Source of the DNA: a virus | Taxonomy: Duplodnaviria; Heunggongvirae; Uroviricota; Caudoviricetes | Virus record (IMG/VR): IMGVR_UViG_2698536657_000018 | Span: 1 to 9,313 of that record | Strand: one strand, 5' to 3' | Length of the DNA stretch: 9,313 nt | Position numbers: made by a program | In this document: in pieces, positions 1 to 3,000 of the stretch | Layout of the letters: each line of letters begins with the position of its first letter | Numbering within the stretch: the first letter of the stretch is position 1

Positions 1-3000
1 TCACCGCAGCAGCTCTCTGGTGGCGGTAATATCCCGGAGAATATCCCTGTGTTTGTTCAGTTCCCGCAGCGCGGCACAGACTCGCTCCCACTTCTGAACA
101 TCACTTTTCGCCCTGCGCAGCGCCAGGTTTGCCCTGCACAGGGACAGAAAAATCAGCTCATCTGCTTGCGTTTCGGTAAACGATGGCAACGACTGCACAA
201 TGTCCGCCACTGTTTCTGTTTTAATATCTTCCTGTGTTGCAGATTCCTGTACTGGTAACGCAACACCTGCTGGCTGAGGAAAGGCCTTACCATCATTTTC
301 CGTTACCGGCACGGCTTTCGGCTCTGCTGGTAAATTATCGCCCGGCATGCAGTAACGAAATTTACCGTTCTGATTTACGCGTGCCAGGCGTCCCGTTGCG
401 GTTACCACCGCCAACGTGGAAGCAACCTTGCGAATGCTAACACCGAACTTATCCGCCAGTTCCTCACACGTTTTAGCCCCCTCCTGACCGATAAACTCAA
501 TCATCATGTCTGCGGTAACTTTTTGTTCGACCTCCCCGGTCAGCACATCCGGTACTTCAGACTGTTCTGGCTGCTCTTCGGTTACCCCGGATTCACCTTC
601 GCCAGCCAGAAACCAGATGTGACCCGCTTTATCAACAACGCCATTTCTTTTGAGTTCCCACAGTTCGTTGAGAACCTCTTCACGACTGATATCAAGCCGC
701 TCAGCCAGTCCAACAGAGCTGGCTTTTCCCATTGCTTTCAGTGCGTCAAAAACGGTTTCCATTAAAATTTCCTCCTACAAAATCGCTTCTCAGATTCAAA
801 TAAAACCAGCTGCCTTCCGGCGTTCGTATTCCTGTTTCAGCCATTCAATTGGCGTTGGCCCTTTCGGGTGTTTCGCCCCTTCCAGTTGTCGTCTCACTGG
901 CGGAACACTCATCCCGTTACCAACATGCTTTGCCCATTTCGTCAGTTGCCGTTCCGCAAGTCGTTTTAACTCACCCTGCGTCATCTGGCGCTCAATCCCT
1001 CTGGTACGCATTTCGAGGCAGATGTGGTACAGCACAGGCTGTGGCCACGGGTATTTATCACTCCCGTCGTATCGCCAGGATTCATTGCGCCAGCGCCGGT
1101 ACTCTTCCATCACGGCATCCACCGTAAGACCAAATGGATTTGCCCCACTCTCCGAAATCAGCGCAACAAACTCAGCCAGGTCCGGGGGCCACGTTTCACC
1201 CGCCCGGCAGCGGTCCATGCACTGACGACAGACCTGCCGGATTTGCTGTTCAGTCATCGCACCAATCTGGGCAATCCAGAGCTTCGAAGGTGCGGCCCCG
1301 TTCTTCTGAGTCCAGCGGTTCGAATACACCTCCCCCATAAGCTCCCACAGCTTCCAGGCCGTTTCCGTTGCTGATAAATCCGTTGTCACGTTCCCACTGT
1401 TCGCGTGCTGCCCGGATTTCCTGAACTGCCCGTGATGCCGTGCCACCTGATGCTGCATGGCTTACCCCCTTGCTGACTGGTTTTACCTGTGCCCTGACGT
1501 GCTGCACGTGGCGGGCAAATTTCTGCTCCCACTGAACCTGCGTGAAAACCTTCCCCTCCGCCATCCAGTAATCCCGGAATGCGGCAAGCTCAGCAGGTGT
1601 AAATTCCGGCTCAGGCAGAGCCATACCCCACACTGCTGCCCGTTGTCGAAAATCCGACGACGGCTGCCAGACAGTAGTCATCGAAAATTTCCCGATCGGT
1701 TCGCTCAGGCCGTCCAGGTATTCAGGTTCGGCTGTCTGCAACGGCGCACCATGCGACTCACCGGTTGGAGCACTCTCGCGCATGCGCGCGTTATGTGTGG
1801 GGTTTAATTCTGTATCTGTATCTTTATCTGTCGTGACTTGTCGTGACAGATGCGTGACACGTCGTGACTCATCGTGACAATCAGCATCATATTTCCGCAG
1901 CTTTTCGCGCTCCCGCTGCGCTCTCTTGCGCTCTGCCGGGGATTTTGCCGTTTGCGAAACGTTACCATTGTCCTCTTTCAGCACCTGACGTTTTTCCCAT
2001 CCGGAAATAAGGTCACCATCCAGAACCCGCCCCTGCATTGCATGCAAAATTGAATCAATTACGTCTTCCGTCACATCAAGCGCACTTGCTAAATCTTCCG
2101 TCGTGACATCAATGTGACCACGTAGTGACACGCCGTGACATGTCGTGACATTTCGTGACGCGCTCACCAGAAGGTGGATATACACTGCCATCACTGTTGC
2201 GATTGGCTGTCCTGATACCCTGGCAATCGTTCGCCACTTGGGGTCATTTGGCATGTCATGCCACAATCTGAGCCAGGCATTAGCCATACTCACCTCTTCT
2301 GATACCGAACTTTACCCACGAACTTCCGGAAGAAATCCGGTATAAATATTGTTGGTCAATGCACAACAACAGCATTACCAGGCTGACCACCACTGTTAGT
2401 CAGGGTGCCCCAGGCGATCGCCGCTGCGACAAAATCATCCACATCTTTCACCAGCCGATCCCGTCGTTCGACGATCTCCCGGTAATATTCAGAACTGTGA
2501 CTGCGCATACGGGCCACCAGCAAAGGCGGCATCGCCTTTTCGATCGCCGGTAACAGCGCCTGAATTTTTTCAACAGCATCAGGGGTGTCCTTCTCCACCC
2601 AGCGGAAAATTTTCTGGGTATTACGGGCCAGGGCTTCCGGATGGCTGTCGTCATACAGTTCCGGGAACGTCATTCCCAGCTCGAAATACGCTTTGGTAAT
2701 TTTCGCAGCCGGTACTTTTTCGCCGTCCGGATGCGCCCAGACATTCATCGCCATGCGGATGTGTTCATGCTTGATTTTCATGAATCAACTCCCAGCGTGG
2801 GTTGTGTGTTAGCCTGATAGTCAACAGGTATGCCATCGGTTGGGTTGGGGTAAGTACTGCTATCAATCTCGTGCGGGGTCACTACCCACCCTGTTGCTTC
2901 ACACCAGCGTAAAACTTTCCCCCCCGTAAGTTTCGCCCGTCCAGTAATAACATGGCTTACCATCCCTTGGGTTACCCCAACAATTTCAGCAAAATCTTTC

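Follow-up and report, generated by a model that had tools for sequence, protein, structure and literature searches.

A probable replication origin inside the initiator gene of a Rac-like lambdoid Escherichia coli prophage

Results

We analysed a stretch of 9,313 nucleotides (the window), positions 1 to 9,313 of the IMG/VR virus record IMGVR_UViG_2698536657_000018. The sequence comes from a Rac-like lambdoid prophage of Escherichia coli and covers its early region. A replication initiator of 345 residues is encoded on the minus strand at 1250-2287, and its gene contains two arrays of short direct repeats, an AT-rich tract and a palindrome. Judged from this sequence and its relatives, the segment 1777-2159 is probably the replication origin of the lambdoid (Rac-like, Shiga toxin (Stx)-type) prophage, placed inside the gene of its own initiator.

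The five units of array A extend from 1832 to 1878 and read GTCACG in the sense of the gene on the minus strand, where they occupy codons ~137-153 (nucleotides 410-456 of 1038). On the plus strand they are exact copies of CGTGAC starting at 1832, 1842, 1853, 1863 and 1873 with a spacing of 10, 11, 10 and 10 bp, in agreement with a first-pass annotation that had claimed five CGTGAC direct repeats at 10-11 bp. The iteron had been given there as (T)CGTGAC(A); the hexamer is a conserved core, but the flanking T and A were weakly conserved. The same annotation saw array A alone and missed array B, which comprises six direct units (GTCACG in the sense of the gene, minus strand) at 2102-2159, corresponding to codons ~43-62. 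On the plus strand, array B shows CGTGAC at 2102, 2134, 2144 and 2154, TGTGAC at 2113 and AGTGAC at 2124, spaced by 11, 11, 10, 10 and 10 bp. Likewise missed was a single inverted unit at 2070-2075, 33 nucleotides beyond the last array B unit, which reads GTCACA on the plus strand and TGTGAC in the sense of the gene. The setting inside the initiator gene was correctly recognised, with the amendment that the gene is on the minus strand, the units read GTCACG and the AT-rich tract is downstream of them. In the sense of the gene, the order is array B, inverted unit, a distance of ~220 bp, array A, AT-rich tract and a 12-bp GC palindrome.

The hexamer CGTGAC occurs 12 times in the window, compared with 3.9 +/- 2.1 copies expected from dinucleotide-preserving shuffles, none of which (0/200) reached 12. 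Nine of the 12 copies belong to the two clusters inside the initiator gene, and a scan of the window revealed no further cluster of units. From the background rate we estimate the chance of five in-register copies at 10/11 bp to be of the order of 1e-13. DnaA boxes (TTWTNCACA) were absent from the window, which thus gives no indication of a DnaA-dependent design. Promoter and terminator scans around the arrays gave nothing above chance, and a weak promoter-like match overlapping array A was disregarded.

Directly after array A in the sense of the gene follows a (GATAAA/GATACA)n tract at 1801-1831, the proposed DNA-unwinding element. The lowest GC content of the gene (0.325) was found at 1790-1829 and its least stable 30 bp at 1802-1831, where the nearest-neighbour energy is -33.6 compared to a gene mean of -44.3 (sd 3.0). 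This segment ranks in the lowest 0.7% of the whole window for duplex stability, which bears out the earlier claim of an AT-rich tract beside the repeats. Just past the tract, at 1777-1788, is the perfect 12-bp GC palindrome CGCGCATGCGCG, which was also picked up as a stem in a scan. A similar GC-rich stretch is present in the ydaU gene of the prophage Rac-SA53. In lambda, a palindrome flanks the AT-rich region of the origin; the position of 1777-1788 recalls this arrangement.

We then asked how the repeats relate to the encoded peptide. With their period of 10/11 nucleotides the GTCACG units occupy all three codon phases, leaving the peptide signature CH..SR..VT. A repeat codon pattern encoding VT/HV had been predicted for homologues; a codon signature was indeed found, but it is CH / SR / VT. 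Codon choice was compared at 12 loci that were selected by the protein motif alone. At the sites, serine was encoded by TCA in 24/24 cases (background 21%), valine by GTC in 36/36 (19%), threonine by ACG in 32/36 (25%) and histidine by CAC in 24/24 (57%). The third base of the arginine codon, a spacer position, varied freely. A profile of 191 units likewise showed the GTCACG core with weak flanks, and the units were spaced by 10 nucleotides in 106 cases, by 11 in 34 and by 9 in one.

The comparison with close relatives gave the same picture. In the phages 640R1 and Tritos, which are 83% identical, all hexamers of array A are unchanged and the 4-5-nucleotide spacers differ. Array B has four units in related phages, and the difference is an indel of 21 nucleotides, equal to two units and to seven codons. 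In 23 distinct close relatives, variation was seen in 1 of 66 core columns, compared to 5 of 39 in the spacers and 69 of 394 elsewhere. The codon and column counts thus showed, as far as sequence comparison can tell, that selection on the hexamers acts on the DNA and not on the peptide. The arrangement of 6+5 units was kept in 70 of 80 close relatives, and 2 of the 80 have an extra, frameshifting unit. These two IMG/VR loci (L091 and L092) carry one additional 10-nucleotide GTCACG unit in array A (6 instead of 5, at gene nucleotide ~461), which leads to a frameshift and stops and looks like a slippage of units that inactivated the initiator.

The AT-rich tract was followed in 30 loci. GATA[AC]A repeats were present within 36 nucleotides after array A in 26 of them, and the GC content was 0.28 in the tract versus 0.55 in the gene, the low value being found also in hosts of 65-69% GC. 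At 13 loci with a gene GC of >=55%, aspartate in the tract was encoded by GAT in 41/43 cases compared to 101/263 (38%) elsewhere, and lysine by AAA in 36/46 compared to 62/177 (35%). AT-rich synonymous codons are enforced here, which, on codon usage, showed the tract to be under selection at the DNA level as well. Exact matches to a 22-nucleotide (GATAAA)3 pattern numbered 64 in the viral collection, and 28 of them belong to the initiator family of the window. Other matches lie mid-gene in PF09681, DUF6291, Lin1244_N and DUF1376 proteins (IMG/VR loci L139, L167, L170, L183, L159, L188 and L191), and in most of the examined initiator-like genes of these other families phased GTAACG, CGAACG or CAACG units precede the (GATAAA)3. 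This suggests an origin grammar that may be common to several N-terminal families.

The initiator itself consists of an N-terminal winged-helix domain (residues ~1-100), a basic helix, a disordered linker and a DnaT-like C-domain (residues 201-267), and the linker is encoded by array A and the AT-rich tract. An AlphaFold model had a mean predicted local distance difference test (pLDDT) score of 68.6, with ~86-92 in the core, and showed a bundle of helices that includes a winged helix (helices 63-70 and 74-84, hairpin 85-95), then a basic helix at 117-134 and disorder beyond residue 143. The modelled winged helix is closest to the N-terminal domain of DnaD and to plasmid RepA. Array B encodes a loop of the N-domain that was modelled with low confidence (pLDDT <50 at residues 48-54), and the segments encoded by the two arrays, either of low confidence or disordered, tolerate indels.

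The gene had been called O-like. This describes its position and role, but no homology to lambda O was detected: a Pfam scan gave no Phage_rep_O match at E <= 0.01, a profile comparison with the family alignment returned a probability of 0.1%, so that such a homology was rejected, and the N-domain is a DnaD-like winged helix. For the N-domain no significant Pfam family and no solved-structure relative was found by sequence. TIGR01714 scored 16.4 bits against a cut-off of 49.8, PF09681 matched 2 of 35 family members (E 0.067), RepA_N (PF06970) matched neither the window protein nor its family, and DUF1376 did not match the window protein. Close relatives are named 'phage replisome organizer' by NCBI. 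The N-domain family comprises 1019 protein clusters across Gamma- and Betaproteobacteria and at least 582 viral contigs; only 24 deposited phage genomes contain it, none of them a model phage, and its annotation is limited to 'DnaT-like domain protein' or 'replisome organizer', without a described origin.

GTCAC units were present at gene nucleotides ~129/139/149/160 and ~389/399/409(/418) in 24 of 38 genome loci. The hosts with two arrays include Enterobacterales, Pseudomonas, Bordetella, Chromobacterium, Acidovorax, Pseudothauera, Entomomonas and others. Their loci span 0.34 to 0.69 in GC, and copies of GTCAC beyond the gene are almost absent. In 21 of 27 loci of the GTCAC class an inverted GTGAC follows exactly 33 nucleotides after the last array B unit. 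The distance between the arrays is constant across loci, which is explained by the conserved protein domain encoded between them and is therefore no independent evidence.

Other relatives carry other hexamers. GTAACG is found at the same two gene positions in Sphingomonas, Enterobacter and Marinobacter, CGAACG in several metagenome genomes and a podovirus, and GCAACG in Ralstonia phage Firinga, which is 38% identical. Firinga has CGTTGC at +34, the reverse complement of its own GCAACG unit. Save for a few mixed or irregular loci, both arrays of each locus carry one hexamer. Since the arrays, and in Firinga also the inverted unit, have the same hexamer, a single reader of all sites would be the simplest account. 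Among the irregular loci, an Erwinia locus (L014) has GTCACG units at 5-nucleotide spacing mixed with inverted copies at gene nucleotides 196-217 and 448-487, and a Pantoea locus (L026) combines GTAACG with GTGACG and GTCAC units. Both loci may be transitional between specificity classes. The arrays are missing in a few relatives (L029, L033, L037, L039, L041 and a Microcystis phage). In two of these, from Serratia and Pantoea (L039 and L041), the same N-domain is found with neither arrays nor a GATAAA tract, and the middle is replaced (..YVYYV..GIS.NPWAR..). They may represent a derivative that no longer carries the origin.

The initiator gene is a mosaic. Megablast placed a breakpoint at ~1810-1830, in the AT-rich tract, which thus also marks the joint of exchange between initiator modules. 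The N-terminal half with both arrays is common to the phages 640R1, Tritos and Evi, whose C-terminal halves and downstream genes differ. The C-terminal half (window 1250-1830), the AT-rich tract and the P-like loader gene show 88% DNA identity to ydaU/ydaV of Rac-SA53, where YdaU has a DUF1376 N-domain and GTCACG is absent. K-12 YdaU combines a DUF1376-type N-terminal half with a third C-domain (..IPPGFRG), which is also joined to GTCACG-type N-terminal halves. In Pseudomonas phage P7869 and Ralstonia phage Firinga the neighbouring genes are unrelated, and the N-domain alone is constant with the arrays. Taken together, these comparisons showed that the arrays are co-inherited with the N-terminal DNA-binding domain across mosaic joints.

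Discussion

The first-pass annotation had proposed an iteron-type origin with its own specificity in the initiator gene. DNA-level selection, the conserved layout, the concerted hexamer switches, the co-inheritance with the N-domain and the layout of SPP1 oriL all agree with this proposal. The origin so proposed is an uncharacterised example of a familiar design, and a specialist would expect such an origin.

An experimentally proven counterpart is oriL of Bacillus phage SPP1, where gp38 (the 'replisome organizer' G38P) binds direct repeats beside an AT-rich unwinding element within gene 38 (PMC6316719). In gene 38 (L195, 538-640) we found five units of ~11 nucleotides, GA(A/G)AAACGACAC and GAAAAAGACAC, whose core is AACG or AGAC. 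Behind them, in the central part of the gene that codes for the linker, comes an AT-rich tract containing GATAAC motifs. As in the window, direct repeats thus precede an AT-rich tract mid-gene in the linker-coding part of an initiator gene, and the loader gene is directly downstream. The C-domain family of G38P, Phg_2220_C, is also that of P0120, a member of the window's family, and G38P is annotated as DnaD-like, which corresponds to the DnaD-like fold of the window protein. In contrast, the N-domain of the window protein has no significant match to PF09681 or TIGR01714, and its loader is lambda-P-like. The units are not the same in sequence, and the host of the window's prophage is a proteobacterium. 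SPP1 has its second site, oriR, at a distance of ~13 kb, whereas the second array of the window is 220 bp upstream in the same gene.

The arrangement of ori-lambda, which had been claimed for this locus, was also recovered: iterons and then an AT-rich tract inside the initiator gene, with a P-like gene downstream. In lambda, four 18-bp iterons occupy nucleotides 349-433 of the 900-nucleotide gene O, a position similar to that of array A (410-456 of 1038). In both cases the AT-rich tract is downstream in the direction of transcription, the region encodes an interdomain linker and a palindrome is found just beyond the tract. However, the lambda iterons are dyad-symmetric, ~18-19 bp long and ~20-24 bp apart, whereas the units of the window, grouped in two arrays, have asymmetric cores of 6 bp and recur every 10-11 bp, and the initiator of the window is not homologous to O.

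A third parallel is given by the RepA_N plasmids. The Rep protein of pSK41 has a winged-helix N-domain related to DnaD that binds four boxes central in its own rep gene; the boxes encode a linker that is dispensable, the C-domain, which is specific to the host, recruits parts of the replisome, and in pPR9 the N-domain and the origin were exchanged as one module (PMC5703833). The window shares the DnaD-like winged-helix N-domain and the central position of repeats in the initiator gene, and its array segments are of low confidence and tolerate a 7-residue indel. It differs in having no Pfam RepA_N match, and the RepA_N system belongs to plasmids of Firmicutes and not to a phage.

The ydaU-ydaV region of Rac shares with the window the type of prophage, the gene order (helix-turn-helix (HTH) gene, YdaT, initiator, loader), the AT-rich tract, the DnaT-like C-domain and the loader. 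YdaU differs by its DUF1376 N-domain, and in place of GTCACG arrays the inverted repeat TGTTCAAACA / TGTTTGAACA immediately precedes the same GATAAAGATACAGAT tract at mid-gene in ydaU, both in K-12 Rac (L124, ~3044-3075) and in Rac-SA53 (L003, 2114-2146). Rac was reported to have an active origin, oriJ (PMC3945230). We found no sequence-level map of oriJ in the literature, and the inverted repeat is a candidate for the oriJ core. By layout the window is like the SPP1, lambda and pSK41 systems, yet by sequence, on the profile searches described above, it lies outside Phage_rep_O, PF09681, RepA_N and DUF1376.

We infer binding, melting and helicase recruitment as follows. The DnaD-like winged-helix N-domain would bind one GTCACG for each turn of the helix, in head-to-tail order along a single face of the DNA, at the five units of array A and at the six units plus the inverted one of array B. 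The bound initiator would then oligomerise, possibly bridging arrays A and B, and thereby stress the adjoining (GATAAA/GATACA)n tract until it melts; array B and the inverted unit may instead serve control. The DnaT-like C-domain, together with the P-like protein, would bring the host DnaB helicase to the opened DNA. Transcription from a cro-side promoter would presumably pass through the origin, as in lambda.

Several points weigh against an origin at 1777-2159. A search of the literature on GTCACG iterons, ydaU origins and iterons of prophage replisome organizers yielded no description of this origin. The AT-rich tract is only ~30 bp long, and lower duplex stability was found in several intergenic parts of the window. 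The compared homologues are phylogenetically related, so that Fisher p-values overstate their independence. Finally, the winged-helix and recognition-helix residues are by eye nearly alike across the iteron classes, without obvious co-variation of recognition helix and hexamer class, and hence the reader could in principle be another factor.

This last point leads to the explanation that the hexamers are read by a host factor, the YdaT-like protein or an HTH regulator as a regulatory or architectural site. Besides the barely differing recognition helices, it is favoured by the upstream YdaT-like gene, which is co-inherited with the N-terminal half in E. coli phages. We regard it as very unlikely, since the neighbours differ in P7869, Firinga and the genome loci, where only the N-domain is constant with the arrays, and since, with a host factor as the reader, the existence of four hexamer classes in similar hosts would be left unexplained. 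A somewhat more serious, though still unlikely, explanation is that the arrays are initiator sites for control, acting by an autorepressing roadblock, titration or copy pairing, with the true unwinding site elsewhere. Plasmid iterons serve such control roles, for example in copy pairing. Array B is placed close to the gene's 5' end, where no AT-rich tract adjoins it, and in SPP1 the second site oriR has such roles (PMC6316719). However, a conserved, DNA-selected AT-rich tract follows array A directly, neither the window nor the flanks of related loci contain another cluster of units, and proven origins have the same grammar. A control role for array B alone may well exist and would be compatible with an origin at array A.

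The extra frameshifting 10-nucleotide unit in 2 of 80 close relatives and the mosaic joint at the adjoining tract would also fit a slippage-prone on/off switch of the initiator gene or a mere recombination hotspot. This is highly improbable given the stable number of units (6+5 in 70 of the 80) and the conservation of the cores at fixed positions across bacterial orders; moreover, such switch loci normally have much shorter units in widely varying number. Chance, or a repeated peptide in a low-complexity linker, could be considered because the region encodes low-confidence loop and linker segments. The shuffles (0/200 reached the count), the three codon phases and the fixed synonymous codons already refute this, and we give it practically no weight.

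The replication origin proposed for 1777-2159 might be one instance of a more general grammar, in which NN(A/C)ACG hexamers phased at 10-11 bp are followed by a sequence-specific (GATAAA)n. It would be common to at least five N-terminal families (the WLRLWHD family of the window, PF09681, DUF6291, Lin1244_N and DUF1376), which in Pfam have no sequence match to one another, and would include SPP1 oriL. We put this forward tentatively and consider it rather doubtful. If it were true, (GATAAA)n would not just be rich in AT but act as a specific element recognised by a shared partner, such as a single-strand-binding C-domain or the loader-helicase complex, as well as a recombination joint that shuffles specificity and recruitment modules, and the four hexamer classes would be a natural code for initiator specificity.

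Megablast found matches in 2555 of 5426 complete E. coli genomes, and 658 of them cover most of the gene. The initiator region is 99.9% identical in an Stx2-converting prophage beside potC of E. coli strain 4 (NZ_CP045209; L129, 1-17551), which also has a Q-like antiterminator, a DNA methyltransferase, three tRNAs and stx2A, the latter ~8 kb beyond the initiator. A module of 99.9% identity drives an Stx2-converting prophage, and the window itself may come from an Stx-type prophage. In Stx phages, the level of replication affects the toxin gene dosage. Published typing schemes for the replication regions of Stx phages include such non-lambda modules and give no location for their origins (PMC8044961, PMC8951638); the YdaT-containing types listed are Eru8 and Eru11, and origins or iterons are not mentioned. 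The breadth of the family, the clean natural specificity classes and the common GATAAA tract make the proposal worth testing. With its naturally occurring hexamer classes and clean joints between modules, the family provides a ready system for studying how a winged-helix initiator reads its origin. A synonymous recoding of such initiator genes would destroy the cis-acting element.

Other features of the window

Downstream of the initiator gene, at 796-1257 on the minus strand, is the gene of a lambda-P-like helicase loader, which overlaps the initiator stop by 8 nucleotides. Its product matches Pfam Phage_lambda_P (PF06992, E 5e-16) and PHROG 109 'P-like helicase loader', and a 99.9% identical copy of 462 nucleotides is annotated by NCBI as 'replication protein P'. 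The loader is presumed to be the partner of the initiator's C-domain. A gene for a DUF1627 protein is also downstream of the initiator on the minus strand. The YdaT-like gene (2356-2781, minus strand) precedes the initiator gene and is itself preceded by a gene for an HTH regulator at 2778-3041 on the minus strand, divergent from another HTH regulator gene at 3149-3649 on the plus strand.

Further along the plus strand, two small open reading frames at 3667-3858 and 3858-4148 match in position and length a pair in the Stx2-converting prophage (L129) that is annotated as a hypothetical protein and a toxin of the RelE/ParE family. On position and length they would be a toxin-antitoxin pair adjoining the repressor. 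The antisense RNA DicF was found at 4827-4878 on the plus strand (Rfam RF00039, 61 bits compared to a gathering score of 48). It was the sole match in an Rfam scan of the window, and a tRNA scan of the window found none. One isolated CGTGAC copy (4860) is located inside the DicF RNA. A gene for a RecE-like exonuclease (5535-8006) and the integrase gene (8294-9313) are also on the plus strand. Within the exonuclease gene, at 7065-7148, a 21-nucleotide repeat with the consensus AACGAGCCAGAAACGGAACAA is present four times in tandem and is in frame as a 7-residue peptide repeat.

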